A DNA stretch of 64,000 bases. It comes from Candidatus Saccharimonadota bacterium. GTDB taxonomy: Bacteria > Patescibacteriota > Saccharimonadia > Saccharimonadales > Saccharimonadaceae. Positions 5,154 to 56,688 of the stretch are shown one piece after another; positions within the stretch are counted from its first letter, which is position 1, and every line of letters begins with the position of its first letter. The position numbers were made by a program, and so were the translations under genes. The stretch is from contig JAFWDS010000021.1 in NCBI GenBank assembly GCA_017516075.1, forward strand, positions 17,151 through 81,150. The letters run 5' to 3'. The notes beneath the pieces are model-generated. The model had not been told where the DNA came from, searched no databases, and was given only the letters and a program-made list of their open reading frames with translations.

Positions 5154-6444
5154 ATGCAATAATTCCCCCACCAATGCAAATCTCGCCGTCATATAATACT
5201 GCCGACTGCCCACTCGCCGGCCGCTTCACTTCGTGCTCAAAATGCAACGTTTCGCCATCAAACGTCGCAGGGATTAGGGGCGCACGATGTCTTAAGCGAA
5301 CTAAGACCTGCTTTTTCTGAAGCATAACATGATTTGAATTTTCAACACGTATATTCCTGACGTCACCGACAGGTTCGTCCCGAAGGGACGGTTCTGCCGG
5401 CTGACCAGCGTATGACGTGCTTGAAAATTCAAGTCGCGCTGAAGAAAAAGCAGGTTTAGTTCGCATAAAAACATCTTTCAGTTTTAGTTCCTTAACCCAC
5501 AAATTTTCATCATTCAGATTTTTCGACACATATACGATATTTTGCCCGACATCTTTTTTGACCACATAATACGGCAACCCATCATTTACTACGCCCTTCT
5601 CACCATCTAGATACAACCCATGCCTCTGCCCAATTGTATAAAACACCGCCCCTTCGTGAAAACCGAGCACCTTGTTGCTCTCGATTTCGCGAATCTCACC
5701 TGGTTGAGCATCGATATATTCCTTGAGAAAATCCTTCATTCCTACCTCGCCAACAAAACACACCCCCATGGACTCTTTTTTGTAAGCATTATGCAGCCCA
5801 TGCTTCTTGGCGAGCTCCTTCACCTCCGGTTTCCGCATCTCACCTATGGGAAACAAAGTATGTTCCAAAGCTTCCTCGGAAATGCGATAAAGAAAATACG
5901 TCTGATCCTTATTCTCATCTATGGCGCGCATTAGACAAGTTCGGGACGATTGCGAACTAACTGTTTGGGGGCTTCCGGAGGTTACGACCGAGGATGAGGG
6001 CGCGAGCCCCGTAACGACGGGCGCGAGCGACCCGTCCCCCAAACAGTTATGTTCGAATCGTCCTATTCTCGCATAATGCCCCGTAGCAATATAATCAGCC
6101 CCTGCCTCCATCGCTTTCTCGTAAAAGAGCTTGAATTTAATCTCTTGATTACACATTATATCTGGATTTGGCGTATTCCCGGCGCGAAACTCACGTAGCA
6201 TATATTCCACCACCTTCTCTCGATATTCTTTTTCAAAATCCCAAACGAAAAAATCAATACCGAGCTTCACTGCCACTCTCTTGGCGTCGGCCAGGTCTTC
6301 TGCCCATGGGCACTTCATGCCAGGGAGGTCTCTAGACCAGTTTTTCATATATACACCAACAACGCGATATCCTTGCTGCTTCAAAAGCAAAGTCGATACG
6401 CTCGAATCTACTCCGCCACTCATTCCAACATACGCTGTTTTCAT
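5152..6444 (-). CDS. mnmA: tRNA-specific 2-thiouridylase MnmA carrying two in-frame palindromic insertions
   Basis: SGGVDS, NPDIMCNQEIKF, ATGHYAR, KDQTYFL, KKESMGVCFVG, YTIGQRHGL, GQSAVLYDGE.C.GGG; start reassigned to ATG 6444 (MKTAYVG). Confidence 0.95.
   Translation of the reverse strand: MKTAYVGMSGGVDSSVSTLLLKQQGYRVVGVYMKNWSRDLPGMKCPWAEDLADAKRVAVKLGIDFFVWDFEKEYREKVVEYMLREFRAGNTPNPDIMCNQEIKFKLFYEKAMEAGADYIATGHYARIGRFEHNCLGDGSLAPVVTGLAPSSSVVTSGSPQTVSSQSSRTCLMRAIDENKDQTYFLYRISEEALEHTLFPIGEMRKPEVKELAKKHGLHNAYKKESMGVCFVGEVGMKDFLKEYIDAQPGEIREIESNKVLGFHEGAVFYTIGQRHGLYLDGEKGVVNDGLPYYVVKKDVGQNIVYVSKNLNDENLWVKELKLKDVFMRTKPAFSSARLEFSSTSYAGQPAEPSLRDEPVGDVRNIRVENSNHVMLQKKQVLVRLRHRAPLIPATFDGETLHFEHEVKRPASGQSAVLYDGEICIGGGIIA
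5296..5464. mobile_element. Intragenic palindromic element, family B, in mnmA
   Basis: Arms gcgaactaa(g)acctgctttttct 5296-5318 / agaaaaagcaggtttagttcgc 5443-5464; 41-bp and 73-bp blocks shared with the iscS copy. Confidence 0.85.
5945..6062. mobile_element. Intragenic palindromic element, family A, in mnmA
   Basis: Perfect 14-bp inverted repeat taactgtttggggg / cccccaaacagtta; 80-bp core (5964-6043) identical to dnaX 50649-50728. Confidence 0.9.
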
Positions 6445-6527
6445 AAGTATTATTATACCATAATATGACATAAAAATACCAAAAATCAAGTCTACTAAAA
6501 CTAACATAACCATGATATATAATAAAT

Positions 6528-8360
6528 ATGAGAAAAAGGTGTGTGCTATTTGCGATGCCAATCCCGATTATTTTGGCGATTTTTGGAATTTTGTCACAAA
6601 ACAGTGTTTTTGCTCTTACCTACTCTACCGACGTTAATGTACAGTTTACTTTTAATCCGGCTCTGCAGATAGATTTATCTTCTGCGGATCTTCTAATTTC
6701 TAATCTTTCTCCTGGCACTGCAGCTGATTCTAATGTAATAGATGTAATAGTAAAGACTAATAATATCACCGGCTATACTCTGAATGCTACAGTGGGCAAT
6801 AATACTACATATGATACCCGCGATTTAGTACATGAAGTATCTGGTTCTTCAGCTAATTTTGCTAGTATTAACTACGGCTCTAGCCTAGCTAGTCTTACTA
6901 CTGACAATACTTGGGGTTATTCTTATTCTACTGATGGTGGTACAAATTGGGAAGACTATGATGGATTGCCACTTTATAGTGATGCTACTAATATTGCTAC
7001 ACTAAAAGACTCTACTACCCCTCCTGCTACTAGTACTGGAGATGTAGTAAACTTCAAAATTGCCGCAAAAGCCAGTACTATGCAAGCTTCTGGTGATTAT
7101 AATAACGTGATTAACTTTATTGCTACAGCAAATCCTATACCCACTTTAGGTCCAGTAGCCTGCGAGAGTGGCAAAATTTGTTACAATGCTAACGTATTGG
7201 ATTCAATCGAAGTAGAAGGGACGATGGGGAAACCTACTGCAAATGCAAACACTACCACCATGCTTCTCGCATCTAACTTCAGTAGAGATGGCTATGGTTT
7301 TGCTGGTTGGAGTGATACTTACGACTATAGCGGTAACTTATATGGTCCACAGGAAGAAATCACTACTCCGGCAGATATGTCTAGCGGACTTCCGCTTTAC
7401 GCTATCTGGGTTCAATCCGCTGGCAGTATGCAGACCAGTGATGCAACTAGCGCCTGTAATAGTCTCACTGCCGCTACTCCTGGATTTAAATCTCTTGCTA
7501 GTGTCACGGCTCTTACTGATGAACGCGATGGCGAAACTTACGCCATCGCTAAACTCGCCGATGGTAATTGTTGGATGATTGAAAACCTAAGACTAGATAA
7601 TACCGCAGACCATAATTCCGATGGTACATTAGCGCAGGGTTACAATTCTAGCTTTGCTGGTCTCGCTAGCCCAGAAGCGCCATCGCTCTTCGCTAACGCA
7701 ACCACTGCAAATACTTTGTATAGTATAGATGGCTCCACCGATAAAACTATTTCTGGTAGTGATCAAGGCTACAGATTTCCACGATATAACAATGTAAATA
7801 CTCCTACTGCAGTCGCCGACAGACCGAGCAATCCCACCACTAACTCCGCAACTAATAGCACCTCAAATGCTGGCTTATATAGTTATGGTAATTACTATAC
7901 CTGGTCGGCTGCTATAGCGGACACTACGCATTATCCCACAAATAACCAATCTGTCACCAGTACTTCTATATGTCCTACCGGTTGGCGCTTGCCAAAAGGT
8001 GGCAATAAATCAAATGAGGCAAATAATGATTACTGGGCGCTTGTTGTAACTGGAATTAATGGCGGCATAAATCCATCTAATTACGATAGCGAAACTAGAC
8101 CATATTATACTAGTTCCCCTGAAGGTCCGAGTATCTCGAATGCTCTTAGAGCATACCCCAATAATATTATTTATTCCGGATATGCCGAAGGTGGTTCAGT
8201 GGAAAATCGCGGTTCAGGTGGTGGACATTGGTCGTCTACGGCGGTTTCTACTACTAATGCCTACTCTATAGTGTTTTACAGCAACTACGTTTACACGGGT
8301 ACAGGCAGTAATTCCAAGTATTTCGGAAGAACTATCCGCTGTTTTGCCCCTGGCACATAA
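6528..8360 (+). CDS. Secreted FISUMP-domain surface protein (paralog 3)
   Basis: Signal peptide, WxL-like N-domain, GYGFAGWS, LADGNCWMIENLRL, YGNYYTW, CPTGWRLP, HWSST, TIRC. Confidence 0.8.
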   Translation: MRKRCVLFAMPIPIILAIFGILSQNSVFALTYSTDVNVQFTFNPALQIDLSSADLLISNLSPGTAADSNVIDVIVKTNNITGYTLNATVGNNTTYDTRDLVHEVSGSSANFASINYGSSLASLTTDNTWGYSYSTDGGTNWEDYDGLPLYSDATNIATLKDSTTPPATSTGDVVNFKIAAKASTMQASGDYNNVINFIATANPIPTLGPVACESGKICYNANVLDSIEVEGTMGKPTANANTTTMLLASNFSRDGYGFAGWSDTYDYSGNLYGPQEEITTPADMSSGLPLYAIWVQSAGSMQTSDATSACNSLTAATPGFKSLASVTALTDERDGETYAIAKLADGNCWMIENLRLDNTADHNSDGTLAQGYNSSFAGLASPEAPSLFANATTANTLYSIDGSTDKTISGSDQGYRFPRYNNVNTPTAVADRPSNPTTNSATNSTSNAGLYSYGNYYTWSAAIADTTHYPTNNQSVTSTSICPTGWRLPKGGNKSNEANNDYWALVVTGINGGINPSNYDSETRPYYTSSPEGPSISNALRAYPNNIIYSGYAEGGSVENRGSGGGHWSSTAVSTTNAYSIVFYSNYVYTGTGSNSKYFGRTIRCFAPGT

Positions 8361-8461
8361 AAAGCATCTAGTAAACCTCCTCCCTCACCCCCCTCCCCCA
8401 TATTCCTTAGATATGATATGATTAAATCCAAGAAGGAGATTTCTAATAATAACTTAACCCA

Positions 8462-8490
8462 TTGACAATATGGGATATATGCCATATATT
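8462..8490 (+). promoter_or_regulatory. Sigma70-type promoter of the toxin-antitoxin pair, overlapped by an inverted repeat (possible operator)
   Basis: TTGACA-17 nt-TATATT; atatgg...ccatat palindrome overlapping the spacer and -10. Confidence 0.55.
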
Positions 8491-8513
8491 ATATATAGGC
8501 TGGAAAGGATACT

Positions 8514-8768
8514 ATGCCAACAGTAAGTTATTTTTATGGAATCATCATTGTGATGTATTTGCGTAGCAAGGAGCACAACCCTCCGCACATTCACGCCATC
8601 ACGCAAGATTTCGACGCGCCATTCTCTATAGAAACCGGCGAAATAATGGAAGGCATTTTTCCCAACAAAGCCAAAACTCTTGTTAAAGAGTTCATAATTA
8701 AATATCAAAAGGAATTAAAGGAGATGTGGGACAAAGAAGAATACTTCAAACTCCCACCTTTACAATAA
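8514..8768 (+). CDS. DUF4160-family protein (putative toxin)
   Basis: 84 aa, FYGIIIVMY...EHNPPHIHA motif typical of DUF4160. Confidence 0.8.
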   Translation: MPTVSYFYGIIIVMYLRSKEHNPPHIHAITQDFDAPFSIETGEIMEGIFPNKAKTLVKEFIIKYQKELKEMWDKEEYFKLPPLQ

Positions 8769-9220
8769 TGTTTCATAAAGTAATAAAACTAGAATATAAA
8801 GATAACGTTACTCTAGAAATGACTTTTCAAGATGGTAAAGTTATGCGTTATGACATGTCAGTTCTTTTTGATAAATATCCAGCACTTAAGGCTCTCAAAA
8901 ACAGAGATTTATTCCTGTCCGGTAAAATGAGTTCTTATGGCATCCGCTGGAACGATGATTTAGATATAGAAGCCGAAACTATCTATCAAGATGGCGAATT
9001 GGTTCGCACTACCAAACTCCCCATCAATTTTGAAATAGCCTATATGGTCAGCTCGGCAAGAGCTAAATCTGGTTTGTCGCAAGCAAAACTCTCCGAATTA
9101 ACCGGTATAGATCAAGCAGACATTTCCAAGATAGAAAACGGCTTATCTAATCCATCCATCTCTACGCTTGAAAGAATTGCAAAAGCTCTTCGGGCTGATT
9201 TGGAAATATCGATTAAGTAG
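8768..9220 (+). CDS. DUF2442 + XRE helix-turn-helix protein (putative antitoxin)
   Basis: TAATG coupling to upstream gene; L.F.DG..(Y)D...GI.W.DDLDI..E.IY N-domain; GLSQAKLSELTGIDQADISKIENGLSNPS HTH. Confidence 0.8.
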   Translation: MFHKVIKLEYKDNVTLEMTFQDGKVMRYDMSVLFDKYPALKALKNRDLFLSGKMSSYGIRWNDDLDIEAETIYQDGELVRTTKLPINFEIAYMVSSARAKSGLSQAKLSELTGIDQADISKIENGLSNPSISTLERIAKALRADLEISIK

Positions 9221-10604
9221 TCGCAGTTCTTTGCTTTTCTGCCTGAACTACATCGTTTATGATCTTCGCCGCTTCATGAATCTGGGCCTCGTCGTTAGTC
9301 TCACCAAGAGTAATACGAAGCGAACCTGCAATTTGCGAATCGGAAAGCCCTATTGCTTTTAAAACATGCGAACGCACGCCTTTAGAAGCCGCGCAAGCCG
9401 CCCCTGTAGCTACATATACTTCTTTTTCTTCAAGAAGGAACACTAATCGTTCCGCATCTATATTATTATAGCATATAACTGCAAAATTGTCAAGAGAGTG
9501 CTTCTTGTTGATAAGCTCATACCCCTGTAATTCTTCGAGCAAAATCTTGCGCCATGAAGCGTATTTTTTACGATTGCCGTTTAGATGCTCCTTAGCGAGT
9601 TCCACCGCCTTCGCAAACCCAATCACGCCTGACACGTTTTCCGTACCAGAGCGCAGCCCATTTTCCTGCCCACCACCCATGGTTAATGGCTTCAGTCTTG
9701 CGTCATGTGATACATACAAAGCCCCCACGCCTTTCGGTCCATAAATCTTAGCCGAGTTTAGAGTAAGTAAATCCACACCTAAACGTGCAACATTAATATC
9801 TAGTAGATTCAATGCTTGCGAAGCATCAGAATGCAGCAATAGCTGCTTCTTAATTCCCCGTTTCATTCTATCAATCTTAATCTCGCGAATAATCGAAGCA
9901 ATCTCCGCCATCGGCTGAATCGTCCCCAACTCATTATTCACCAGAGCCACGGATATCAACTCCGTCTCATCAGAAATCTTGCTTCGCAAATCTTTCAAAT
10001 CGATTAGTCCATTTGAAAGCACGCGAACACTCTGTCCTCCGTACCTCTCCGCAACGCGCCTGATGGAATCATGCTCTGTTTCCAGATATAACACGGAAGC
10101 GCGGGTGGCTGAAACCTGTTTTTTCGGATGCATAACATGATTTGAATTTTCAACACGTATATTCCTGACGGACCCGACCGCTGTAGGAGACGATGATACA
10201 GAAAGCTTGCTTTCTGTATCTAGGCGACGCCCAGCGGACGATTTGTTTTCGACAGGTTCGTCCCGAAGGGACGGTTCTGCCGGCTGACCAGTGTATGACG
10301 TGCTTGAAAATTCAAGTCGCGCATCCGAAAAAATAGGTTCAGCCAGGCCCTGCGCCTCGGTACTAAGGCATGTAAACGCCAAATTATTCGCCTCGGTTGC
10401 GCCAGCGGTAATGACGAGGTCGGATGCTTTGGCTCCTATCGCATGCGCTATCACTGCTTTGGCGGCTTCATAATCAGAAGCAACTTTTTTAGCCGGCAAA
10501 TACGCCGCACTTGGATTAAAAAAATCAACCGCAAAATACGGCTCCATCGCCTTCAAAACTTTTTCATTTACCGGCGTTGCAGCCGCATGGTCAAGATATA
10601 TCAT
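9213..10604 (-). CDS. iscS: Cysteine desulfurase (IscS/NifS group I) with in-frame palindromic insertion
   Basis: IYLDHAAATP, ITAGATEANN, VNNELGTIQP, HSDASQA, SAKIYGPKGVGAL, GGQENGLRSGTEN, ATGAACA. Confidence 0.9.
   Translation of the reverse strand: MIYLDHAAATPVNEKVLKAMEPYFAVDFFNPSAAYLPAKKVASDYEAAKAVIAHAIGAKASDLVITAGATEANNLAFTCLSTEAQGLAEPIFSDARLEFSSTSYTGQPAEPSLRDEPVENKSSAGRRLDTESKLSVSSSPTAVGSVRNIRVENSNHVMHPKKQVSATRASVLYLETEHDSIRRVAERYGGQSVRVLSNGLIDLKDLRSKISDETELISVALVNNELGTIQPMAEIASIIREIKIDRMKRGIKKQLLLHSDASQALNLLDINVARLGVDLLTLNSAKIYGPKGVGALYVSHDARLKPLTMGGGQENGLRSGTENVSGVIGFAKAVELAKEHLNGNRKKYASWRKILLEELQGYELINKKHSLDNFAVICYNNIDAERLVFLLEEKEVYVATGAACAASKGVRSHVLKAIGLSDSQIAGSLRITLGETNDEAQIHEAAKIINDVVQAEKQRTATT
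10107..10344. mobile_element. Intragenic palindromic element, family B, with nested 75-bp module, in iscS
   Basis: Arms ggctgaaacctgttttttcggatgc / gcatccgaaaaaataggttcagcc; inner hairpin gatacagaaagc-tt-gctttctgtatc. Confidence 0.85.
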
Positions 10605-11680: not shown

Positions 11681-12508
11681 CTAAATACCGAAGAGTTTTC
11701 TTGCATTTTCCGTAGTCTCCTTCTCTATAATTTCGAACTTTTCGCCTAATTTTTCGCTGAGCCACGTGGCTACCTCGCGAACATAGGCCGGTTCATTAAT
11801 TATACCACGAAATTGCTTTGGAGTCAAGAAGGGAGCATCTGTTTCTAGGAGTATCCGCTCAAGTGGCGGAGTTGGCAAAGTCGAATACGTCGCAAGACCA
11901 TTGACTCCAACATAAAACTCTGTTTCATTTAAAATCCGCTTCAAAATCTTCTTGCTATCAGTAAAAGAATGCACTACGCCTCTTAATTTCGGAAAATTCT
12001 CAATCACCGGGAAAAAATCATAAAACGCCTCTCGCACATGAAAAGAAACCGGCAAATCATTGTCGATAGCGAGCTGGCACATCTGTTCAAATAGCCGAAT
12101 CTGCGCCTCGCAATCATAATCTTCATAATGGTAATCCAGCCCCACCTCCCCAATAGCCACTAAAGAAGAGGGCCTGTCATTTATGTCTCGCTTGGGGGCG
12201 CGTCCGGCCGGCCCGTCGCCACGGGCGGCCGGCGCTACCTCTCGCGCTGCCGCGCTCCGAACCCCCCTTCGCTGAGACATAAATGCCACCCCTTCTTTAG
12301 TTGCTGCTTCCGGATGAATTCCATAAGTCCAATAAACATTATCATGGCTATTAGCAAACTCCATAGCGTTCAAGGAATCTTCGTGACTGGTACCAATGCA
12401 GATTATTTTTTTGACATCTGCTTGATGGGCTCTATTGAGCATTTCGTTTGCTTGCTTTTCGGTAAAAAACTCCCTATCGTGTAGATGACAATGTGAATCA
12501 ATTAACAT
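11681..12508 (-). CDS. tatD: TatD-family hydrolase with in-frame palindromic insertion
   Basis: MLIDSHCHL, GIHP, AIGEVGLDYHY, FHVREA, GVVHSF, LLETDAPFLTP, NEPAYV. Confidence 0.93.
   Translation of the reverse strand: MLIDSHCHLHDREFFTEKQANEMLNRAHQADVKKIICIGTSHEDSLNAMEFANSHDNVYWTYGIHPEAATKEGVAFMSQRRGVRSAAAREVAPAARGDGPAGRAPKRDINDRPSSLVAIGEVGLDYHYEDYDCEAQIRLFEQMCQLAIDNDLPVSFHVREAFYDFFPVIENFPKLRGVVHSFTDSKKILKRILNETEFYVGVNGLATYSTLPTPPLERILLETDAPFLTPKQFRGIINEPAYVREVATWLSEKLGEKFEIIEKETTENARKLFGI
12179..12284. mobile_element. Intragenic palindromic element, family A, in tatD
   Basis: 11-bp inverted repeat atttatgtctc / gagacataaat; core ggggttcggagcgcggcagcgcgagag...cccgtggcgacggg on the - strand. 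Confidence 0.85.
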
Positions 12509-12524: not shown

Positions 12525-12704
12525 AAACTAAAAAACTAATTCGAATGAGCATTGAGTAAACCCAAGAAAGTTTTTATGGAATTTAGGAAAATTTGACTCG
12601 CGAACCCTGAAGAGAGCCGTGAGACGAGCAAATTTTCCATTAAAAATTTCATAAAAACTTTCCTGGCGTGCAATGAAGTGCGAACGAGAATAGTTTTTTA
12701 GTTT
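12525..12704. repeat. Intergenic ~180-bp imperfect palindrome between typA stop and tatD promoter
   Basis: Nested arm pairs aaactaaaaaacta/tagttttttagttt, gaaagtttttatg/cataaaaactttc, ggaaaatttg/caaattttcc. Confidence 0.8.
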
Positions 12705-14593
12705 TGTATTCTATTTTCTCTTTTACGTTTAATCGGATCAAGTTGTCTCTTGCGTAATCTCAAAGACTTCGGTGTAACTTCGAGAAGTTCATCATCCAAG
12801 AGAAAATCCAAACACTGCTCTAGAGATAGCTGTGTGTATGGCGTTAACTGAATTGCCCCATCCGATGCGTGCGTCCGCATATTTGTCAGCTGTTTTTCGC
12901 GACAAATATTAATGTCCAGGTCATCCTTTTTATTGGAAAGCCCCACAATCATTCCCTGATACACTGGCACTCCTGGCGGAATAAACAGAATCCCGCGTGC
13001 CTGCGCCGAATCCAACGCATACGCAGTGGACACGCCATCTTCAAATGAAATCAATGCACCATTGCGCTCCGGTTTATAGCGATTCTCCACCGGGCGATAT
13101 CCAGATGGAATCGAGGACATTATCACGGTGCCCTTCGTTGCGGTAAGTAGACTATTGCGCAGCCCAATCAGTGCCCCAGTAGATATTTCATACACAAATC
13201 TAGTCGTACCAGATGTTGTCATATCTTGGCTTTTGAGTTCGGCTTTACGGATACCTAGCTCCTGTGATACCGCGCCTACAAAATCCGGTGCCACCTCGAT
13301 AGTCAAATCCTCAATCGGCTCTTGTTTTACGCCGTCAATCTCGCGATACACCACTTCTGGTCGTCCAACCTCAAGCTCGTATCCTTCTCGCCTCATCGTT
13401 TCAATCAAAACTGATAGATGTAACTCTCCGCGCCCTGACACCTTATACCCAAGTCCATCGGGCTGCAGTTTCAAGGCAATATTGGTCTCGAGCTCACGCT
13501 CTAACCTCTCAGCGATTTGTCGTGAAGTCGTAAACTCGCCTTCACGCCCCTTAAGCGGCGAGGTATTCGGCCCGATATAGATAGATAGAGTTGGCGCCTC
13601 AAGCTCGATTGTCGGCAACGCCTTAGGATTATCGCCAGTCGCAATCGTATCACCGATATTTGCCTCAGCTACACCGGTAATTGCCACAATATCCCCCGCA
13701 ATCGCCTCTTGCACCTCCTCCTTAGCAAGACCTTTGTAAATAAACAAATTGTCTATCTTAGCTCGCTTCTCGACGGGTCCTGACGTCGCAGTTTCCCCCA
13801 TCCTCGCAGTGACTCGGCTGGGGGTCCCCCCAGCGACGTCACCCGTCGATGGAGTATGTAATATAGTCACACTTTGGTTCTTTTTCAACTTTCCACTAAA
13901 AATCTTCCCAATACAATATTTCCCAAGATAATTATCACCAGCGAGTGCCGCCACAAGTAATTGCGCCGATTCGGAATCCGCATCCACCGAAGGTGCCGGA
14001 ATGTCGTTGATAATTGATTCAAAAATCACATGTAAATCATCGTCTAGATCGGTAGTTTTTCCGGCACGCCCTTCGCGTGCTATCGCATAATACACTGGGT
14101 AGAATAGCTGCGACTCATCTGTAGCCAGCTCCAAAAATAGCGACTCTACCTCACTCAAAACTTCATCAATTCTAGACCCAGGCTTGTCAATTTTATTTAT
14201 CACTACTACCGGCTTCAGCCCCAGCGAAAGCGCTTTTGACAACACGAATTTCGTCTGCGGCATCGGTCCCTCCTGCGCATCTACGATCAAAAGAACCCCA
14301 TCCGCCATATTCAAAGTCCGTTCTACTTCACCCGAAAAATCTGCATGCCCCGGCGTGTCGATGATATTTATCTTGTATCCATCATAATATACACAAGTCT
14401 GTTTGGCGGTAATCGTAATTCCCCGTTCATGCTCCTGGTCCATCGAATCCATAATCAGCGTTTGTGACATTTCTGCTTGATTCTCGCGAAAAGTATGCGA
14501 CTGCTTAAGAAGTCCATCCACGAGCGTGGTCTTACCATGGTCGACGTGTGCAATTATCGCCACATTCCGAATTCTATCTTTATTTAAAACCAT
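12698..14593 (-). CDS. typA: Translational GTPase TypA/BipA with in-frame palindromic insertion
   Basis: IRNVAIIAHVDHGKTTLVD, ERGITI, NIIDTPGHADFSGEVER, NKID, VSGRGELHL, LEVTPKSLRLRK. Confidence 0.95.
   Translation of the reverse strand: MVLNKDRIRNVAIIAHVDHGKTTLVDGLLKQSHTFRENQAEMSQTLIMDSMDQEHERGITITAKQTCVYYDGYKINIIDTPGHADFSGEVERTLNMADGVLLIVDAQEGPMPQTKFVLSKALSLGLKPVVVINKIDKPGSRIDEVLSEVESLFLELATDESQLFYPVYYAIAREGRAGKTTDLDDDLHVIFESIINDIPAPSVDADSESAQLLVAALAGDNYLGKYCIGKIFSGKLKKNQSVTILHTPSTGDVAGGTPSRVTARMGETATSGPVEKRAKIDNLFIYKGLAKEEVQEAIAGDIVAITGVAEANIGDTIATGDNPKALPTIELEAPTLSIYIGPNTSPLKGREGEFTTSRQIAERLERELETNIALKLQPDGLGYKVSGRGELHLSVLIETMRREGYELEVGRPEVVYREIDGVKQEPIEDLTIEVAPDFVGAVSQELGIRKAELKSQDMTTSGTTRFVYEISTGALIGLRNSLLTATKGTVIMSSIPSGYRPVENRYKPERNGALISFEDGVSTAYALDSAQARGILFIPPGVPVYQGMIVGLSNKKDDLDINICREKQLTNMRTHASDGAIQLTPYTQLSLEQCLDFLLDDELLEVTPKSLRLRKRQLDPIKRKRENRIQN
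13770..13849. mobile_element. Intragenic palindromic element (GGGTGAC...GTCAGGACCC type) in typA
   Basis: tcgacggg(tcc)tgacgtcgc / gcgacgtcacccgtcga; encodes STGDVAGGTPSRVTARMGETATSGPVE. Confidence 0.8.
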
Positions 14594-17759: not shown

Positions 17760-17817
17760 AACCCTATTATAACACAAATTTTAAATATGCTATAATAAAA
17801 TTATCAATGGAGGAAAT

Positions 17818-18872: not shown

Positions 18873-19538
18873 TCACCATACAATTTCGCTCATCCCATTT
18901 GCTTTCAAAAACTCATTGCATTTCGAAAACGGTCGGCTCCCAAAGAACCCATTATAAGCCGACAAAGGCGACGGATGCGCCGACTCCAAAACCAAGTGCT
19001 TCGAGGTATCAATTAGCACTTTTTTGTTCCGCGCGTCTCTCCCCCAAAGAATAAACACTAGATGCGGCCTCTTCTCGTTCAAATATTTAATAGTTTCGGT
19101 TGTAAAAATCTCCCAACCCTTCCCGCTATGCGATTTTGGTCGATGTGCTTCCACGGTCAGAACGGTATTTAAAAGTAACACTCCCTGCTTTTGCCAATTA
19201 GACAAACTTCCGCGCGGATTGGCATGTTTACCAATATCCGCATCAATTTCCTTGTATATATTTATTAGACTCGGCGGTATCGGCTGCGAATTTGGCACCG
19301 AAAACGCCAATCCTTCCGCCGCTCCAGGTGTATGGTACGGGTCTTGTCCTAGTATCACCACTTTCACTTCATCGAGATCTGTCATGAACGCCCGAAACAC
19401 CAACTCCTTCCGCGGATAAATTGTTTTCTTCTCGTATTCTTCGTGCAAAAATGCAGATAATTCCTTAAAATACGGCTTTTCAAACTCACTCTTCAAAAAC
19501 GGCTTCCAACTCTCATGCATAAATTGATTATAATTCAT
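18873..19538 (-). CDS. ung: Uracil-DNA glycosylase (family 1)
   Basis: VILGQDPYH, GLAFSV, PPSL.NI, QGVLLLNT, HPSPLSA; start reassigned to ATG 19538. Confidence 0.95.
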   Translation of the reverse strand: MNYNQFMHESWKPFLKSEFEKPYFKELSAFLHEEYEKKTIYPRKELVFRAFMTDLDEVKVVILGQDPYHTPGAAEGLAFSVPNSQPIPPSLINIYKEIDADIGKHANPRGSLSNWQKQGVLLLNTVLTVEAHRPKSHSGKGWEIFTTETIKYLNEKRPHLVFILWGRDARNKKVLIDTSKHLVLESAHPSPLSAYNGFFGSRPFSKCNEFLKANGMSEIVW

Positions 19539-19693
19539 ATTTCTTTTTTTCGAAACATTTTGAAACTGCCCGATAAAAATTACAACAGTCACGGATGAGA
19601 ATCTGATACTGAAATATCAGGGCGAATCCGCCTGACCTGTTGTAATTTTTATGCGGCGCACGTTTCAACGTTGAAAAAAAAGAAATATGAATT
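19532..19693. repeat. Intergenic palindromic element, family C, overlapping ung start
   Basis: 16-bp IR ataaaaattacaacag/ctgttgtaatttttat plus 19-bp outer IR; near-identical inverted copy at 56573-56652. Confidence 0.85.

Positions 19694-32918: not shown

Positions 32919-32932
<14 letters not shown>
32369..32932 (+). CDS. queH: Epoxyqueuosine reductase QueH (DUF208)
   Basis: LLMHVCCAPCS, YNPNIHP, C..CY..RL, FTTTLLVSP, YMQKYCGCIFS; adjacent to queA/tgt. Confidence 0.9.
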
Positions 32933-35452
<2,520 letters not shown>

Positions 35453-37367: not shown

Positions 37368-37403
37368 CTATCGTCTATATAACACATATGTTATAATAAG
37401 AAC

Positions 37404-39257: not shown

Positions 39258-39544
39258 AATCAATCCTCTCTCTATTTTCAGAACATTTACTAGATTTGGC
39301 ACGTTGTAGTCTCTACGATTTTTCAGCGTATAAGCGACCCCCTTGAGTATTACTTAAACAAGCATCGCATAAGGGTGGCAAGAATCGTAAAACGCCATAA
39401 GAACGACCGCAATTCTGCATAAAGCGCTCACATCTGCCGGATTTTGTCAAAACTATCAACAGAACAAGTCTAGCGAAGAAAACTAATGGAGTTTGTTCTA
39501 AGGAAGTAGCAAGTCAAGTTCTGAAAATAGAGTGAGGGTTGATT
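39258..39544. repeat. 27-bp imperfect inverted repeat enclosing ~230 bp of partly self-complementary sequence
   Basis: aatcaatcctctctctattttcagaac 39258-39284 / gttctgaaaatagagtgagggttgatt 39518-39544. Confidence 0.7.
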
Positions 39545-39757: not shown

Positions 39758-41170
39758 CTATTTCAGATACTGCCACACTGGGCCAGTTGGAGTGTCTTTG
39801 ACGGTAATCCCCTGCTCTGCCAATAAGTCTCTAATCTCATCTGATTTAGCATATTCTTTCGCTTCGCGCGCTTTCTGACGCTCAACAATCAGCTTCTTAA
39901 CTTCCTCAGAAATCTCCGGCGAATCAGCAATTAATCTTAGTCCAAACAACTCATCAACCTTCTGCCAATCCTCCATCGATAGCTCTGAATTGTCGATAAT
40001 CGCGAATGCCTCGGCAGAATTGAGATTATTGTTGACGGAGGAGAGTATATTTTGGGCGGGTGACGGGCATGGAGGGGGTCCCCCAAAAATGCCGTCATTT
40101 TTGGGGGAGGAAAATGCCCGGCAGGACCCGCCCAGAGATGTGCTATCGACTTTCTGATATAGCAGCGCTATCCTATTCCGCCAATTCAACCTGCGATTCT
40201 TCGCAGACTCCAATGATTCAAATGTAAAATTCCTCGTCCCTTGATAATGCCCAGACAGCACCCACATTTTATAATCCATCGGCGAAAACCCACGCTCTGC
40301 CAAGTTGCTCAGAGAATAAGTATTACCTAGCGATTTCGACACCTTCTCTCCATCAATCGTAATAAAATCGCAATGCAGCCAATAGCGAGAAAGCTTCCTC
40401 CCAGTCATTGCATGCATTTCAGCTATTTCATTGCTATGATGTACCGGAATGTGATCTATGCCGCCTGTATGAATATCAATCGGCTCACCAAGTTCCTTAT
40501 GAATAATCGTAGCACACTCTAGATGCCAGCCAGGATACCCAGGTCGCCCCAAATAATCCCAACGCATCGCATGTTTTTCGCCTGGCTTAATGAACTTCCA
40601 GACTGCAAAATCCGAAATATTACGCTTCTCATCCGAAAATCCTACTCTAGCACCAGCCTGTAATCCAGCTAGGTCCAATTTAGCAAAATCCGCATACTCA
40701 GGAAATCTAGAAGTATCATAATATATGCCATCGGTTGTTTCATAGGTAAAACCATTCTCAGTCATCTTATCTACAGCATCCATATCGGCTTCGATGTAAT
40801 CCGTCGCTCTCGCCCAAATCTCCGGTTGCAAAAGTTCCAAACTATCATAATCTTTGCGGAACTTCTCTATATAATAATCCGCCACTTCATACACGCTTTT
40901 CCCTTCGCGCTCGGCCCCTTTTTCTAGTTTATCCTCACCCGAATCTGCATCAGATACCAAATGCCCTACATCTGTGAGATTCAATACTCTCTTTACTTTA
41001 TAACCATTTGTGCGCAGAGCTCTCACTAGCAAATCCCAATAGATATAGGCTGTGAGATTTCCAATATGAGCTTCGGCGTATACCGTCGGCCCACAGGTAT
41101 ATATTTTCACAACATCATCCCGAGGCTTGAACTCCTCTAGTTCGCGCCCCAAAGTATTATAGAGTTTCAT
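39758..41170 (-). CDS. cysS: Cysteine--tRNA ligase with in-frame palindromic insertion
   Basis: YTCGPTVY...HIGN, NLTDVGH, DFAVWK, GYPGWHLECA, DIHTGGIDH..VHHSNEIA, KVSKSLGN. Confidence 0.95.
   Translation of the reverse strand: MKLYNTLGRELEEFKPRDDVVKIYTCGPTVYAEAHIGNLTAYIYWDLLVRALRTNGYKVKRVLNLTDVGHLVSDADSGEDKLEKGAEREGKSVYEVADYYIEKFRKDYDSLELLQPEIWARATDYIEADMDAVDKMTENGFTYETTDGIYYDTSRFPEYADFAKLDLAGLQAGARVGFSDEKRNISDFAVWKFIKPGEKHAMRWDYLGRPGYPGWHLECATIIHKELGEPIDIHTGGIDHIPVHHSNEIAEMHAMTGRKLSRYWLHCDFITIDGEKVSKSLGNTYSLSNLAERGFSPMDYKMWVLSGHYQGTRNFTFESLESAKNRRLNWRNRIALLYQKVDSTSLGGSCRAFSSPKNDGIFGGPPPCPSPAQNILSSVNNNLNSAEAFAIIDNSELSMEDWQKVDELFGLRLIADSPEISEEVKKLIVERQKAREAKEYAKSDEIRDLLAEQGITVKDTPTGPVWQYLK
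40053..40134. mobile_element. Intragenic palindromic element (GGGTGAC/CAGGACCC type) in cysS
   Basis: tgggcgggt/acccgccca, cgggcat/atgcccg, cccccaaaaatg/catttttggggg; encodes LGGSCRAFSSPKNDGIFGGPPPCPSPAQ. Confidence 0.85.
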
Positions 41171-42877: not shown

Positions 42878-43032
42878 ATTATAGCACATCGATGGGTGGC
42901 GACAACATTTCAGCGAAGGGGGGTTCGGAGCGCGGCAGCGCGAGAGGTAGCGCGCGAGCCCCGTGGCGACGGGAGCGAGCGACGCGCCCCCGAGCGAAAT
43001 GTTTCGACAGGACCCATCGAAAGTGCTATAAT
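42878..43032. mobile_element. Intergenic family A element between two divergent promoters
   Basis: Arms attatagcac/gtgctataat, tcgatgggt/acccatcga, aacatttc/gaaatgtt; core shared with tatD and tgt copies. Confidence 0.85.
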
Positions 43033-43470: not shown

Positions 43471-44120
43471 GTGATAAACATGGGCAGGTGACGGCTCTAG
43501 AGGGGACGCCTCGCGAGAGCTCGAATGGAAGAGAGCAAGGCTCGGCAAGACCCGTCCAAACTATAACCGGTCCCACCATTCTTACAATTATTAGGATGGT
43601 GTTATCTATACTATTTATGGTATTCGTATTACTACCAGACACGTGGGCCAAAATCGTCGCGCTGGTCGTCTTTGTCATCGCCTGCATCACCGACAAAATC
43701 GATGGCATCTGGGCCAGAAATAGCAAACAGGTTACCGATCTCGGTGCTTTCCTTGACCCTTTAGCCGATAAAATGCTTACTAGTCTTGCTTTCCTCACTC
43801 TTGTTTGTCTCGGCATTGTACCAATTTGGGTATTTGCTATCATCTTAGTGCGCGATTATGCTGTAGATGGCATGCGAATGATGGCAGCGCGAGATGGTAT
43901 CACTATCGCTGCCTCGTTTTACGGCAAACTCAAAACCACCATTCAGATGATTGCGCTCATTATCCTTCTTCTTAATCTCATCGTCAACCTAGAATTCTTT
44001 ACCATCCTTGGCAATGTTGCTCTGTATTTAGCGCTTGCTCTTACTATCTTCTCAGGCATAGATTACCTATACAAAGGCTACAAAACAGTTATCAAAAAAC
44101 CTACGCAAAAAACGAAATAA
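43467..44120 (+). CDS. pgsA: CDP-diacylglycerol--glycerol-3-phosphate 3-phosphatidyltransferase with N-terminal palindromic insertion
   Basis: PTILTIIR, TDKIDGIWAR, GAFLDPLADK, RD..VDGMR, GKLKTTIQ; ATGA overlap with yqeG stop. Confidence 0.9.
   Translation: MSDKHGQVTALEGTPRESSNGREQGSARPVQTITGPTILTIIRMVLSILFMVFVLLPDTWAKIVALVVFVIACITDKIDGIWARNSKQVTDLGAFLDPLADKMLTSLAFLTLVCLGIVPIWVFAIILVRDYAVDGMRMMAARDGITIAASFYGKLKTTIQMIALIILLLNLIVNLEFFTILGNVALYLALALTIFSGIDYLYKGYKTVIKKPTQKTK
43481..43558. mobile_element. Degenerate intragenic palindromic element in the pgsA 5' end
   Basis: tgggcaggtgacgg...cggcaagacccgtcca vs cysS copy tgggcgggtgacgg...cggcaggacccgccca. Confidence 0.65.
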
Positions 44121-50315: not shown

Positions 50316-51753
50316 TTCTTACCTCTCCACCCATTATATCAGATATTTTTTCGAGCACAGCGTCCTTTTTTTCGCTACTAGGGTGCTCATCAGCCTCATG
50401 TATTGTAATTTTTACAAGCCCATCCGTTGCTTGCACTATGACTTTTTTATTGTTTTCTTTTGTTAGAATTGTCTTTATTATATTCCGCATCGGATAAATA
50501 TCTAGCGTATTATCGGTATAAGTGTATTTGCACTTTTTAATCTGTGAATAAACCACATCACTAAGATTCTGCACCCTCGTCAAAAACCCATCCCAGTCGA
50601 AATCGACAGATTGTGAAGGTTGATTGGACGGCAATCGCAAACTATTACTTTGGGGGCTTCCGGAGGTTACGACCGAGGATGAGGGCGCGAGCCCCGTAAC
50701 GACGGGCGCGAGCGACCCGTCCCCCAAAGTAATATGTTTGGATTGACGTCCTTCAGCCTTTCCCGGCGGTCCAGCGTATGAGGTGCTTAAAAATCCAAGT
50801 CGCGCATCCGAAGAAACAGGTTTAACCACGTTTTGAAGAGATAAAGCAACCAACAATTTCGCTTCTGGAAACGGCGCTTTTACATCGGGCAATTTAGCAA
50901 GTAATTTAATTAACGTCGGTTTCGGATTTTCAATGATTTTGGCAATGATTTCCTCTGCCAACGTCTCCGCCTTTACTCCAGACGACAACAAATCTTTCAA
51001 AAGCCCAGATATTTGCTGAGAATCGCCAGCCTCATAACAGGTCAGTAGTTTATTAATCTGTTCATCTTGCGGTAGCCCCAAAGCCTTCACGACCAGTTTT
51101 TCATCAATTAACTCGTCAGATAAGGTTGAAATTTGTTCCAAAAGCGATAGAGAGTCTCTAAATGATCCACCGCCTCGCCTCACAATTATAGAAAGAGCAT
51201 CATCCGAAATACTATAATTTTCTTTGCTGGCGACAGACTTCAGATAATCAAACATCGTTTTTGAATCAGCAAGCTTAAAAGTATAGGTCTGCGCTCTTGA
51301 AGTAATCGTTACTGGTACTTTATAAGCGTCAGTGGTCGCCATAATAAATATAGCGTGTTCGGGCGGCTCTTCTAGAGTCTTTAGAAGTGCATTGAAGGCT
51401 TCCTTAGTTAGCATATGAACTTCATCTATAATATATATTTTGTATTTTGCGTGCGTCGGCGCAATAGCGACCTTCTCGCGAAGATCCCTAATATTATCAA
51501 TCCCGCGATTACTCGCGCCATCGATTTCGATAATATCAACATATTCGTCTTCGACTTTATAATCAAAACCATTCACGGCGTGAGCAAAAATTCTCGCCAC
51601 GCTTGTTTTGCCGCAACCTCTCGGACCAATAAAAAGATATGCATGAGAAACCCGATTTTGTTCCAATGATTTAATCAAAGGCTCAGTCACTTGTGGCTGC
51701 GCAACAACATCCTCCAGCCTCGTCGGCCGATACTTTCTATATAAAGCCTTCAT
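50290..51753 (-). CDS. dnaX: DNA polymerase III subunit gamma/tau with composite in-frame palindromic insertion
   Basis: ALYRKYRP, GPRGCGKTS, EIDGASNRG, IIDEVHML, AFNALLKTLEEP, SRAQ, GSFRDSLS. Confidence 0.95.
   Translation of the reverse strand: MKALYRKYRPTRLEDVVAQPQVTEPLIKSLEQNRVSHAYLFIGPRGCGKTSVARIFAHAVNGFDYKVEDEYVDIIEIDGASNRGIDNIRDLREKVAIAPTHAKYKIYIIDEVHMLTKEAFNALLKTLEEPPEHAIFIMATTDAYKVPVTITSRAQTYTFKLADSKTMFDYLKSVASKENYSISDDALSIIVRRGGGSFRDSLSLLEQISTLSDELIDEKLVVKALGLPQDEQINKLLTCYEAGDSQQISGLLKDLLSSGVKAETLAEEIIAKIIENPKPTLIKLLAKLPDVKAPFPEAKLLVALSLQNVVKPVSSDARLGFLSTSYAGPPGKAEGRQSKHITLGDGSLAPVVTGLAPSSSVVTSGSPQSNSLRLPSNQPSQSVDFDWDGFLTRVQNLSDVVYSQIKKCKYTYTDNTLDIYPMRNIIKTILTKENNKKVIVQATDGLVKITIHEADEHPSSEKKDAVLEKISDIMGGEVRNDGGKSPF
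50625..50822. mobile_element. Composite intragenic element in dnaX: full family A hairpin (50625-50751) plus isolated family B arm (50771-50822)
   Basis: 14-bp IR tattactttggggg/cccccaaagtaata; ccagcgtatgaggtgcttaaaaatccaagtcgcgcatccgaagaaacagg matches family B right arm. Confidence 0.85.
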
Positions 51754-51760
51754 ATATTAA

Positions 51761-53479: not shown

Positions 53480-53486
53480 AATACAA

Positions 53487-54650: not shown

Positions 54651-54705
54651 AATATATATTATAGCTGTAATTGCAAAATAAATCAAAGTGTGATATAATA
54701 GAAGA

Positions 54706-54780
54706 TAGTTACCAAAGACAGTGGCGGGAGAAATCCTTAATCATGCCACCGAGGCAAATTCTTGTATTGTTTGGTGACGC
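54706..54780 (+). promoter_or_regulatory. Ribosomal protein L10 leader (autoregulatory RNA)
   Basis: gttaccaaAGACAGtggc...TTAA...gccaCCGAGG...tttggtgac directly upstream of rplJ. Confidence 0.75.
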
Positions 54781-54835
54781 TATTTAACAATTAGCTAGCT
54801 CATCGACTAATATTAAAATAACCAAAGGACTTTTT

Positions 54836-55357
54836 ATGGCAATTTCAAAGGATAAAAAGAACACATTGGTTGCTGATTTAACGGAACTCTTAGAGAACGC
54901 CAAGTCTACCGTCTATGCCAAATATCAAGGCTTGACCGTAGCTGAGCTTCAAGAGCTTCGTAAAAATGCTCGCGAAGCGGGTGTGAAGATCAAAGTCGTC
55001 AAAAACCGTTTAGTGCGAGTTGCGATGAATCAAATTGCAGTCTACAAAGACACTGATACTACTGGGCTCACTGGCCAGTTACTTTACGCCATCTCTGATG
55101 ACGATGAGGTCGCTCCAGCCAAAGTCCTAGCCGAGTTTGCCAAGAAGCATAACGCCCTAGACCTCATTGGCGGGTTCAGTGATCTTGGTATTAGCTTGTC
55201 TCAGGACGAAGTCAAGTCTCTAGCTGCAATGCCAAGCAAGAACGAGCTGATCGCTCAGGTCGTCGCACAACTTCTCTCTCCAGTTACCGACTCGATTTCC
55301 GGCCTTTCTGGCGGGTTATCCGGTATCGTATCTGGGCTTGAAGCTCACGCAAATTAG
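54836..55357 (+). CDS. rplJ: 50S ribosomal protein L10
   Basis: YQGLTVAELQELRK, KVVKNRL, AAMPSKNELIAQV. Confidence 0.95.
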   Translation: MAISKDKKNTLVADLTELLENAKSTVYAKYQGLTVAELQELRKNAREAGVKIKVVKNRLVRVAMNQIAVYKDTDTTGLTGQLLYAISDDDEVAPAKVLAEFAKKHNALDLIGGFSDLGISLSQDEVKSLAAMPSKNELIAQVVAQLLSPVTDSISGLSGGLSGIVSGLEAHAN

Positions 55358-55380
55358 TAACCAAATAACCATTTAAAAAT

Positions 55381-55493
55381 GAGGTGGAAATTTTTCGACT
55401 CGGGGGATTCCGGAGGCTGCTGCCGAGGGTTAGCGCCCGAGCCCCGTGAAGACGGGCGCGAGGGACGCGACCCCGAGTGAAAAATTTCACCTC
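55381..55493. mobile_element. Intergenic family A element between rplJ and rplL
   Basis: Arms gaggtg(g)aaatttttc(g)actcgggg / ccccgagtgaaaaatttcacctc; core with cccgt-gaag-acggg. Confidence 0.85.
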
Positions 55494-55511
55494 CTATATA
55501 AAGGAGAAATT

Positions 55512-55895
55512 ATGGCAACTGATATTAAAAAATTAGCTGAGGAACTAGTCAAGTTGACTGTTCTCGAAGTAAACGAACTCAAAAACGTCCTCAAGGACGA
55601 ATATGGCATTGAGCCTGCCGCTGCAGCTGTTGCTGTTGCTGCTGGTCCAGCCGCCGGTGCAGAAGCTGCTGCTGACGAAGGCAAATCTGAATATGACGTC
55701 GTCTTGAAAGACGCCGGTTCTCAGAAGATTGCTGTAATCAAAGCAGTTAAGGAAGCTACCGGACTAGGTCTTGGCGAAGCCAAGGCTATCGTTGATGGTG
55801 CTCCTGCCACCGTCAAAGAGAAAGTCGCCAAAGCTGATGCTGAAGCAATGAAGAAGGCTCTCGAAGAAGCCGGCGCAACTGTCGAACTCGCTTAA
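55512..55895 (+). CDS. rplL: 50S ribosomal protein L7/L12
   Basis: [11 protein letters not shown]...[32 protein letters not shown]; AAGGAG SD; start ATG 55512. Confidence 0.97.
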
Positions 55896-55917
55896 ACAAC
55901 CGCTAGCTAATTGTATC

Positions 55918-55945
55918 AAAAACCACCTCGAAAGAGGTGGTTTTT
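55918..55945. terminator. Bidirectional intrinsic terminator
   Basis: aaaaaccacctc-gaaa-gaggtggttttt. Confidence 0.85.
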
Positions 55946-55948
55946 GTT

Positions 55949-56512
55949 TTATGATACATGTTTTGTCGTCAAGAACTGGACTCCGGCGCCAATCGCCGCA
56001 ATACCGATTAAAACTGGCCAATAGTATGTCTCGAAGCTGAGAGATGTGACAAAAGCAAAAATAGCAAGTGTCAAAGCATATGAACCCGCCACAGCAGTTG
56101 CAATAATGATCGCTGGTTTCATTAGCGCTACTGCGGCACCGGCCATTACGATACCAATAACCGCACCAATCGCAAGCGTCGACATTTCCGTACCAAAGTA
56201 TTGAATTGTTGTCATCATCACAAGCACGAAGCATATCCCACCAACGCATAGTTTTTCAATCGTAAACCCTAGCATCGCGAGAAGAACTCCGCCCGCAATT
56301 GGAAGCAAGAATTGATATATATCATTATTTGCGATATCTGGCACAAGATTATTGATAGTCGGCATAAAATAGGTCATTAAAGTAAACCCCAGCAAAAACC
56401 AAATGATAAAAAACGCAATTTTCTTAATACGATACCCGAAAAAAAGTATCGCCAGCCCAATCGCGATAAATATTAATAGTTCATATAATTCTAAGCTTTT
56501 TATCATTTCCAT
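55949..56512 (-). CDS. Integral membrane protein (DUF4203/TMEM198-like)
   Basis: ~6 TM helices, FFGYR motif, ATAVAGSY. Confidence 0.65.
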   Translation of the reverse strand: MEMIKSLELYELLIFIAIGLAILFFGYRIKKIAFFIIWFLLGFTLMTYFMPTINNLVPDIANNDIYQFLLPIAGGVLLAMLGFTIEKLCVGGICFVLVMMTTIQYFGTEMSTLAIGAVIGIVMAGAAVALMKPAIIIATAVAGSYALTLAIFAFVTSLSFETYYWPVLIGIAAIGAGVQFLTTKHVS

Positions 56513-56535
56513 AAGCATATTATAACACGTTTATC

Positions 56536-56688
56536 AAATAATATAATTTTGGGACGATAAAATACGCGCCATATAAAAATCACAACAGATCAGGCGGACT
56601 CGCCCTGATATTTCAGTATCAGATTCTCGTCCGTGACTGTTGTAATTTTTATTGGGCGATTTTATATGTCCCAAGAATTATATTATTT
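56536..56688. repeat. Intergenic palindromic element, family C, downstream of rplA
   Basis: ~150-bp imperfect hairpin; core is the reverse complement of 19573-19652 with few mismatches. Confidence 0.85.

Follow-up and report, generated by a model that had tools for sequence, protein, structure and literature searches.

Palindromic elements with a conserved interior and private stems lie in frame within housekeeping genes of a Candidatus Saccharimonadota bacterium

Introduction

Palindromic repeats carried inside bacterial coding sequence are known from Rickettsia; the Rickettsia palindromic elements (RPEs) RPE-1 to RPE-10 (Ogata et al. 2000) are approximately 100-150-bp palindromic repeats lying in frame in many unrelated housekeeping genes, and no transposase is known to be associated with them (summarized in PMC10969869). 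Translated coding palindromes are also known in hairworm mitochondria (PMC6649704), and strand-specific insertion is known from the IS200/IS605 elements, which insert into the lagging-strand template (PMC5027513, PMC6006769). Here we analyze a family of GC-rich hairpins found inside housekeeping genes of a Candidatus Saccharimonadota bacterium. The stretch of DNA in question, hereafter the window, is 64,000 nucleotides long and corresponds to C14:17151-81150 (GenBank contig JAFWDS010000021.1 of assembly GCA_017516075.1) of a 0.92-Mb draft assembly of 37 contigs that is 95.7% complete. A preliminary description, made from the letters of the window alone, had recognized eleven such hairpins in nine intact open reading frames (ORFs) and two related intergenic copies, and had proposed an RPE-like, recently active family mobilized in trans.

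The nearest named relatives of the source organism are gut and rumen Saccharibacteria, for example Ca. Nanosyncoccus and a metagenome-assembled genome (MAG) from sheep duodenum. [quoted passage not shown] We consider it probable that the hairpins are members of a superfamily spread across the genus, made up of selfish palindromes defined by their structure, which are translated through and insert strand-specifically, as single strands, by means of an agent outside the usual transposase families.

Results

The hairpins are genuine sequence

All 13 stretches singled out in the preliminary description fold into long hairpins, with minimum free energies (MFE) of -26 to -112 kcal/mol and a GC content of 47-70% versus approximately 43% for the genome. 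The 11 genic hairpins lie within nine ORFs, every one of which reads unbroken through its insert; Pfam identifies the host products as MnmA, a class-V aminotransferase (IscS-like), TatD, TypA/BipA, QueA, Tgt, CysS, a CDP-alcohol phosphatidyltransferase (PgsA-like) and DnaX. The quoted peptides were located too: GVRSAAARE in the tatD and queA inserts, the peptide quoted for tgt, and GDGSLAPVVTGLAPSSSVVTSGSPQ in the mnmA and dnaX inserts. The initial account therefore stands for all 13 stretches as to folding and open frames, with one amendment: the dnaX hairpin, taken for a single element, is in fact a family A copy together with half of a family B copy. The copies in the window are interrelated through the direct-repeat families D4, D6, D8, D10, D11 and D17.

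An assembly artefact, which had been named as a way in which the description might fail, was not borne out by independent reads. Metagenome runs from three independent studies recovered 97-99% of the words sampled from window positions 32919-35452, contigs with zero differences traverse the insert at the second queA site, and a strain approximately 3% diverged keeps both queA inserts and shows a single 12-nt in-frame indel. The hairpins are genuine sequence and no artefact of assembly. At the family A core in tgt (34789-34873, runs X1-X3) the word depth reached 2600-4100 versus approximately 25 in the flanks, a ratio of 100-160, which shows a massive repetition of the core in the communities sampled; contigs tend to end within elements. 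No run was clearly of RNA; runs X14, X16 and X17 contain fragments of relatives only, and a search of metagenome contigs for joints that would skip an element, as at an empty site, yielded only joints from other organisms and from repeats.

A conserved interior on a private stem

Each copy follows the same plan, a Y-shaped covarying interior mounted on a private Watson-Crick stem. In an alignment of 27 family A copies, the conserved interior covers approximately 60-65 nt (approximately 80 nt including the closing G/C runs) and consists of a G-run, TTCGGAG or TCCGGAG, sub-hairpin 1 and GAG..TAG, followed by sub-hairpin 2 with a CCCGT-NNNN-ACGGG tip, GAC.CG and a C-run. Its pairing holds in 98.9% of cells over 36 copies versus 82.3% in shuffles (reached in 0 of 500), and 11 of the 20 interior pairs change on both sides (again 0 of 500 shuffles); shifted controls pair in at most 47%. 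Around this interior stands a 15-30-bp stem whose sequence is private to each copy and complementary within it, the duplex of a copy's own arms having a dG of -39.0±8.7 versus -15.8±5.7 for arms taken from different copies. Many copies also carry an outer clamp, GGGTGRC...GWCAGGACCC, with a 3-nt bulge, which is common to the short typA, cysS and pgsA elements. The four AT-rich palindromes in the spacers of the window share the architecture of the GC-rich hairpins, and AT-rich cluster 0 has likewise a conserved centre and a private stem. Smaller modules are nested in the apical loops of larger hairpins.

The outer-stem pairs number 577 Watson-Crick, 8 G-T and 7 A-C; the stems are strictly Watson-Crick, which makes this a palindromy of DNA type and not an RNA wobble helix. 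A cruder count over whole hairpins gave 192 G-T and 207 A-C pairs. Selection for RNA structure is disfavored by this near equality of G-T and A-C and by the equal use of the sense and antisense orientations described below.

Orientation follows GC skew, not the gene

Of 26 family A copies, 22 are oriented as the GC skew around them predicts (Fisher p=0.0013), the tatD copy being the only one in the window contrary to the rule. Independent metagenome contigs obey it in 27 of 35 cases (p=0.004), and in 18 of 21 where |skew| is >0.08; the rule extends to family B (11/13) and to AT-rich cluster 0 (12/15). Relative to the host gene, the family A core is sense in 12 copies and antisense in 12, with five of the six frames in use, in agreement with the earlier observation that the same DNA is read in several frames and on both strands. 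Because the orientation of the core tracks GC skew and not gene direction, a strand-specific insertion coupled to replication is suggested. By analogy with the IS200/IS605 elements, a strand bias indifferent to gene direction would be the signature of single-strand insertion at the fork.

Stop-codon content separates genic from intergenic families

Copies were counted by similarity search combined with minus-strand self-BLAST for palindromes; a sliding-window folding census was discarded as too permissive (456 regions). This BLAST-based census, a count that the preliminary description had called for, found approximately 130 repeat places that make up 1.8% of the 0.92-Mb genome. Places with a GC content of at least 50% number 47 inside long ORFs and 11 outside, near the proportion expected from the approximately 87.5% of the genome that long ORFs occupy, and those with a GC content below 42% number 0 inside and 43 outside. 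GC-rich copies offer 3.2 stop-free frames out of 6, whether genic or not, and AT-rich copies 0.4 out of 6. Survival by stop-codon content, not targeting, explains why GC-rich copies are found in genes and AT-rich ones in spacers only.

The hosts are 46 distinct ORFs among approximately 667 of at least 150 aa (approximately 7%). No gene is split, and the non-genic copies lie in spacers. The inserts in the window add peptides of 26-80 aa, in both orientations and several frames, so that the core of the preliminary description, an RPE-like phenomenon in a Saccharibacterium with in-frame inserts and open host frames, holds. Removal of the inserts at the RNA level, or their bypass by the ribosome, was rejected because all genic copies are in frame and stop-free and no gene is split.

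Beyond this genome, the family A core occurs in 14 of the 18 other genomes of the genus (0-21 copies each) and had no match in 12 genomes of other genera; over the whole genus the number of copies ranges from 0 to 27. A scan of public metagenomes returned 57 contigs with 51 distinct copies clear of the contig ends; 40 of these 51 lie within ORFs, 22 sense and 18 antisense. Carriage by phages was rejected, as the family A and B cores had no match in viral contigs.

Orthologous sites are empty or differently filled

QueA offers the clearest comparison. It has 332 aa in most species of the genus versus 430 aa here, the BLAST match breaks exactly at both inserts, and lengths range from 332 to 482 aa among the 120 matches listed (64-89% identity, plus the query's own 100% cluster). 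Site 1 is empty in some species and elsewhere holds family A, family A into which a module of 25 codons is nested, or composites of greater size; at site 2 there is either no insert or an element that is well conserved. The QueA proteins of the window and of L096, 95% identical, differ by a 75-nt module in the CCCGT-loop-ACGGG tip.

The other hosts repeat this pattern, the TypA, IscS, TatD and MnmA sites being empty in some of the relatives L011-L015 and filled by other families in others. Site a of mnmA, whose element is 89-91% identical to the iscS copy (D8/D17), lacks an insert in L013, whereas L011, L014 and G017 have other elements at this position, that of G017 belonging to family A. At site b, the 80-nt core is identical to that of the dnaX copy, and G011 has a family A copy of another subtype with different stems. 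The iscS-like site is empty in L011, L013 and L014 and carries another element in L012; family B copies lacking the iscS module (joint 10178-10272) occur in related strains. The tatD site holds a family B element in L011 and another element in L012. The typA site is empty in L012, L014 and L015, and the typA gene here is 81-96 nt longer than empty orthologues, a difference that corresponds to the entire 80-nt hairpin. For the AT-rich palindrome 56533-56691, comparison with loci L160-L164 revealed an exact empty site in G006; G002 has other sequence there, and G011, G004 and G007 have a short GC hairpin with a T run after it, which resembles a terminator. The AT-rich element may now act as the terminator.

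Because orthologues show empty sites, other elements, and modules present or absent, these alignments show that the elements are true insertions; the contrary expectation, that they are ancient protein loops, was not borne out by the ortholog alignments that the preliminary description had proposed. The sharing of sites as "hot spots" is consistent with positions that tolerate inserts, and a preference for sites already occupied is also possible. A structural model had likewise been suggested as a check. The AlphaFold model of QueA is of moderate overall quality (mean pLDDT, its per-residue confidence score, 57.7), with values below 30 over residues 111-168; the inserts are modelled at low confidence.

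One QueA lineage shows a partial state of site 1. Compared with L095 (P0005), L094 (P0085) has lost the left arm and core and kept the right arm (DEKNLT), which occupies the place of a host beta-strand (EKIIIT) in other species. A deletion that spared one arm is the better reading, and the arm is possibly an element-derived segment taken into the protein fold.

Hairpins move whole and then evolve in place

In the metagenome contigs, loci whose flanks are unrelated carry stems that resemble one another and differ by compensated changes (L175/L201, L168/L197 and L185/L221), so the moving unit is the whole hairpin, stem included; its stem then diverges under the constraint of pairing, and its interior stays constant. 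Copying of the arms from the adjacent flank was rejected, as the similarity between the arms and their own flanks equals that of the control (the flanks of other copies), with a longest common substring of the same length; a 12-mer search for a remote source of the arms gave as many hits in the control. Within the genome, the intergenic copy 42878-43032 is 94% identical to copies at C9 59680 and C13 57533 apart from a stem patch, and the cysS-type hairpin has six more copies. The core of 55381-55493 is 97% identical to that of copy L134 of G017, whose stems are unrelated.

Once in place, some elements change slowly. Over six species the element at queA site 2 is 78-95% identical in DNA (71-94% at third codon positions), and host queA over the same species is 73-91% identical overall and 40-80% at third positions; 8 of 36 pairs of this element are changed on both sides with pairing kept. 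The orthologous copies L139/C11 and L138/C28 have also retained their stems with compensated changes, while in their interiors sub-helices swap between alternative versions that other copies also have, a pattern resembling gene conversion from copy to copy. Elsewhere, orthologous sites carry stems with no relation to each other, as would result from replacement or from insertions that were independent. Pairing may be kept after insertion by selection or by template-switch correction from arm to arm, a process established for quasipalindromes in E. coli. The claim of recent activity is borne out only partly. It is favored by QueA proteins that are 95% identical and yet differ in having or lacking the nested 75-nt module, but many copies are old, orthologous across species and marked by compensated changes.

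No usual transposase found in this genome

The Pfam families Y1_Tnp (PF01797) and the TnpB zinc ribbon are absent from 19 of 19 genomes of the genus, so the proposed search for a HUH/Y1 transposase (RAYT/TnpA) came out negative. In this genome, a 95.7%-complete draft, rve (PF00665), DDE_Tnp_1 (PF01609) and RVT_1 had no match among the Pfam families, a single Xer-type tyrosine recombinase is present, and self-BLAST for multi-copy insertion sequences revealed no IS-like repeat, only diverged surface-protein paralogues. Mobilization in trans, as first proposed, is accordingly unproven: the assembly has no Y1/HUH, TnpB, rve, DDE_Tnp_1 or reverse transcriptase (RT) gene and one Xer only. No target motif or target-site duplication (TSD) was identified, with boundaries known to within a few nucleotides; this includes the exact empty/filled pair of G006 and 56533-56691, where no duplication is visible. 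Repeats shared by arm and flank were not in excess.

Five other genera of the order, all without family A, do have Y1_Tnp (ORFs of 194-242 aa, 1-6 copies each, in G019, G024, G026, G029 and G030); these genomes may carry hairpin repeats of their own, served by this known type of enzyme. Of the 18 other genomes of the genus, 12 have genes for reverse transcriptase, and none was found in this one; in G014, two ORFs of approximately 560 aa at C40:783-1442 and C39:1047-1700 match the full RVT_1 model, with ORFs of approximately 375-500 aa elsewhere. No link was seen over the genus between the copy number of the elements and genes for RT or integrase. A search of 31 genomes of the order for the C-terminal domain of SbcD (PF12320) gave no match, but the control genomes matched in only 5 of 14, so that this result fits a palindrome-tolerant lineage only weakly; if SbcCD were truly missing, long palindromes would be more stable in the lineage.

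Elements and neighboring features of the window

The elements of the window are collected in Table 1. Scans of the window with Rfam 15 and for tRNAs gave no match at any element, the sole Rfam match being the L10 leader (RF00557, 56 bits) at 54694-54845, upstream of rplJ. The family A copy 55381-55493 occupies the rplJ-rplL spacer of this autoregulated operon. A diverged paralogue family of approximately 600 aa, 66-93% identical over long blocks, is found on both strands of many contigs and often at contig ends; its members, probably surface proteins, lie in the window at 1152-4790, 6528-8360, 15957-17777, 35577-39239 and 62627-64000.

Table 1. Palindromic elements in the window (positions counted from its first nucleotide).
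Position	Strand	Element	Location and remarks
5296..5464	+	Family B hairpin, 47% GC	In frame in mnmA (gene on -), site a; fold -89 kcal/mol
5945..6062	+	Family A hairpin, GGTT-ACGA-CC sub-hairpin subtype	Antisense in mnmA, site b
10107..10344	+	Family B hairpin with nested ~79-nt module in apical loop	In frame in iscS-like gene
12179..12284	-	Family A hairpin with GGGTGRC...GWCAGGNCCC clamp	Sense in tatD
12562..12666		AT-rich palindrome, cluster 2	Between tatD and typA
13770..13849		Short hairpin of the clamp type	In frame in typA
19532..19693		AT-rich palindrome, cluster 0	Intergenic; inverted repeat I10
33243..33422	+	Family A hairpin, module C (75 nt) nested in it	Sense in queA, site 1
33825..33926	+	Family A-related hairpin	Sense in queA, site 2; orthologous across many species
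34742..34880	+	Family A hairpin with clamp	Sense, other frame, in tgt
39258..39544		AT-rich long palindrome, cluster 6	Intergenic
40053..40134		Clamp-type hairpin, differing interior	In frame in cysS
42878..43032	+	Family A hairpin with clamp	Spacer upstream of HAD-phosphatase gene
43481..43558		Weaker clamp-type hairpin, MFE only -26	Near N-terminus of PgsA-like gene
50625..50822	+	Family A hairpin with right half of family B element (composite)	Antisense in dnaX; D6, D8
55381..55493	+	Family A hairpin	rplJ-rplL spacer
56533..56691		AT-rich palindrome, cluster 0 (~17 copies)	Just downstream of conserved gene 56694-57869

Discussion

A superfamily of selfish, structure-defined elements would work as follows. 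The mobilizing agent, not belonging to any usual transposase family, would read the conserved interior and only the shape of the stem. The hairpin would be inserted as a folded single strand, strand-specifically and coupled to replication, and the insert would be translated as a disordered surface loop. After insertion, pairing would be kept by compensatory change and interiors exchanged between copies. Several observations weigh against this account. The evidence for translation of the inserts is the preservation of frame, and GC skew is only a proxy for the replication strand, on contigs that are draft. The hot spots hold different elements in different species, and site preference could contribute to them beyond mere tolerance. 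Orthologous elements evolve more slowly than host synonymous sites, which is unexpected for purely selfish, inert DNA. The Pfam searches of the 95.7%-complete draft supplied no mobilizing enzyme, and neither a target motif nor a TSD was identified. A bolder version, which we hold only tentatively, is of an undescribed kind of mobile DNA defined by shape and not by terminal sequence, whose folded single strands are inserted strand-specifically at the fork with a preference for hairpin loops, by an enzyme outside all known transposase families or by host replication and repair, some hairpins perhaps being co-opted. The preference for loops would explain the nesting, and the slow evolution of hairpins in place suggests that some may be taken over for host use.

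One alternative is that the hairpins are DNA or RNA structures beneficial to the host, such as pause, stability, termination, replication or recombination signals, held by purifying selection. The queA site-2 element, 78-95% identical where host third positions are 40-80%, with 8 of 36 pairs doubly changed and still paired, fits such a view, as do the compensated stems of L138/C28 and L139/C11 and the AT-rich copy that stands where relatives carry a terminator-like hairpin. We nevertheless regard it as quite unlikely, since the core lies sense and antisense equally often and in five of six frames, the stems show no excess of G-U over A-C (8 vs 7) as selection on RNA would leave, the elements occupy spacers as well as genes that have nothing in common, genomes of the genus differ in copy number (0 to 27), and close relatives differ in the presence of an element or carry different families at the same site. 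A spread requiring no dedicated enzyme, through replication errors at hairpins (template switching, slipped synthesis) and gene conversion in a palindrome-tolerant lineage, would account for several features at once: the transposase, RT and integrase families not found in this genome, the sub-helix swaps at orthologous copies whose stems are unchanged, the strictly Watson-Crick pairing expected of templated copying, the orientation tied to skew, and, weakly given controls that matched 5/14, the SbcD C-terminal domain undetected in 31 genomes. It is unlikely, however, as whole hairpins appear at new loci without homology between arm and flank and with no duplicated target seen, and an interior conserved over many species, with a word depth thousands-fold in metagenomes, suggests a specific recognition factor.

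Classical MITEs, that is, deletion derivatives moved by a DDE transposase through conserved terminal inverted repeats, would share with the hairpins a small size, palindromy, multiple copies and the lack of a coding gene, but here conservation is lowest at the termini and resides in the centre, the exact empty/filled pair shows no TSD, rve and DDE_Tnp_1 are unmatched in the genome, and a strand-biased orientation is unexpected for cut-and-paste DDE elements; a MITE origin is very improbable. At the far end of the scale, and hardly credible, is a mobility confined to the interior, with the stem a fold-back copy of the host flank and one arm the original coding sequence. The nominally empty QueA of P0085/L094, which keeps a right arm aligned to the host beta-strand segment, would fit such a model. 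The lengths do not agree with it, QueA being longer by 294 nt for hairpins of 180 and 102 nt and TypA by 81-96 nt for a hairpin of 80 nt; moreover both arms are missing at the exact empty site in G006, arms match their own flanks no better than those of other copies, and similar stems recur at unrelated loci. The superfamily of selfish, strand-specifically inserted elements is the reading that we favor.

As judged from the reading frames, approximately 7% of the longer genes of a minimal, host-dependent bacterium appear to carry translated foreign hairpins, genes of core translation, tRNA modification and replication included. Private stems, nesting and an association with the replication strand, where no known transposase is present, speak for a mechanism that acts on single strands and is coupled to replication. 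The way in which such elements move and their possible contribution of useful protein novelty become testable questions, and nature provides many filled and empty sites; were the tentative shape-defined version true, Saccharibacteria would owe to the elements a large and continuing supply of new protein segments. On the practical side, the repeats break metagenome assemblies and are likely a main cause of fragmented Saccharibacteria MAGs, and the inserts inflate protein lengths and can mislead the annotation and phylogenomics of Saccharibacteria.

Among described systems, the RPEs are close in behavior, being dispersed palindromic repeats of approximately 100-150 bp that lie in frame in the genes of a host-dependent bacterium with a small genome, fall into several families and have no transposase. 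The elements described here differ from them in their conserved interior and private stems, their nested modules, their AT-rich families confined to spacers, their orientation by replication strand and their approximately 46 host ORFs in 0.92 Mb, and in that the phylum is unrelated and the sequences are probably so too. Because the host is a Saccharibacterium, common descent with the RPEs is very unlikely; the resemblance is behavioral, and behavior is the basis of the comparison. The proposed mode of insertion resembles that of IS200/IS605-derived elements and of the repetitive extragenic palindromic sequences and their transposases (REP/REPIN-RAYT), in which single-stranded DNA hairpins are recognized by shape and a few bases, orientation is biased by the fork and copies are non-autonomous (PMC5027513, PMC6006769). 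However, the Y1 HUH transposase of those systems is absent from 19 of 19 genomes here, and REPs are extragenic with conserved end motifs, whereas the present elements occur within genes also and their ends are private; no target tetranucleotide was found for them.

The attC sites of integrons are likewise imperfect palindromes recombined as folded single strands, with structure taking precedence over sequence and with an asymmetric extrahelical bulge, for which the 3-nt bulge of the clamp is the counterpart here. Their ends are conserved and their centre variable, the reverse of the present arrangement, and our elements lie within coding sequence, with no cassettes and no integron integrase (one Xer-type recombinase only). 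MITEs found in genes (ERIC, Correia and Nezha among others; PMC10969869) are small non-coding repeats also able to give in-frame fusions, but they have conserved terminal inverted repeats, TSDs and a cognate transposase, none of which was found in this 95.7%-complete draft. The sponge RHEs (PMC2800124) and the palindromes of Nematomorpha (PMC6649704) are long, near-perfect inverted repeats that reduced genomes tolerate and translate within essential genes; the two arms of a Nematomorpha palindrome, however, code for conserved protein of the host and are not inserts, and the mitochondrial hairpin elements belong to organellar genomes and lack a conserved shared interior. By their defining features, then, the elements of this Saccharibacterium are not RPEs, MITEs, REPs or attC sites, and their private stems, nesting and strand bias are new relative to the described families.

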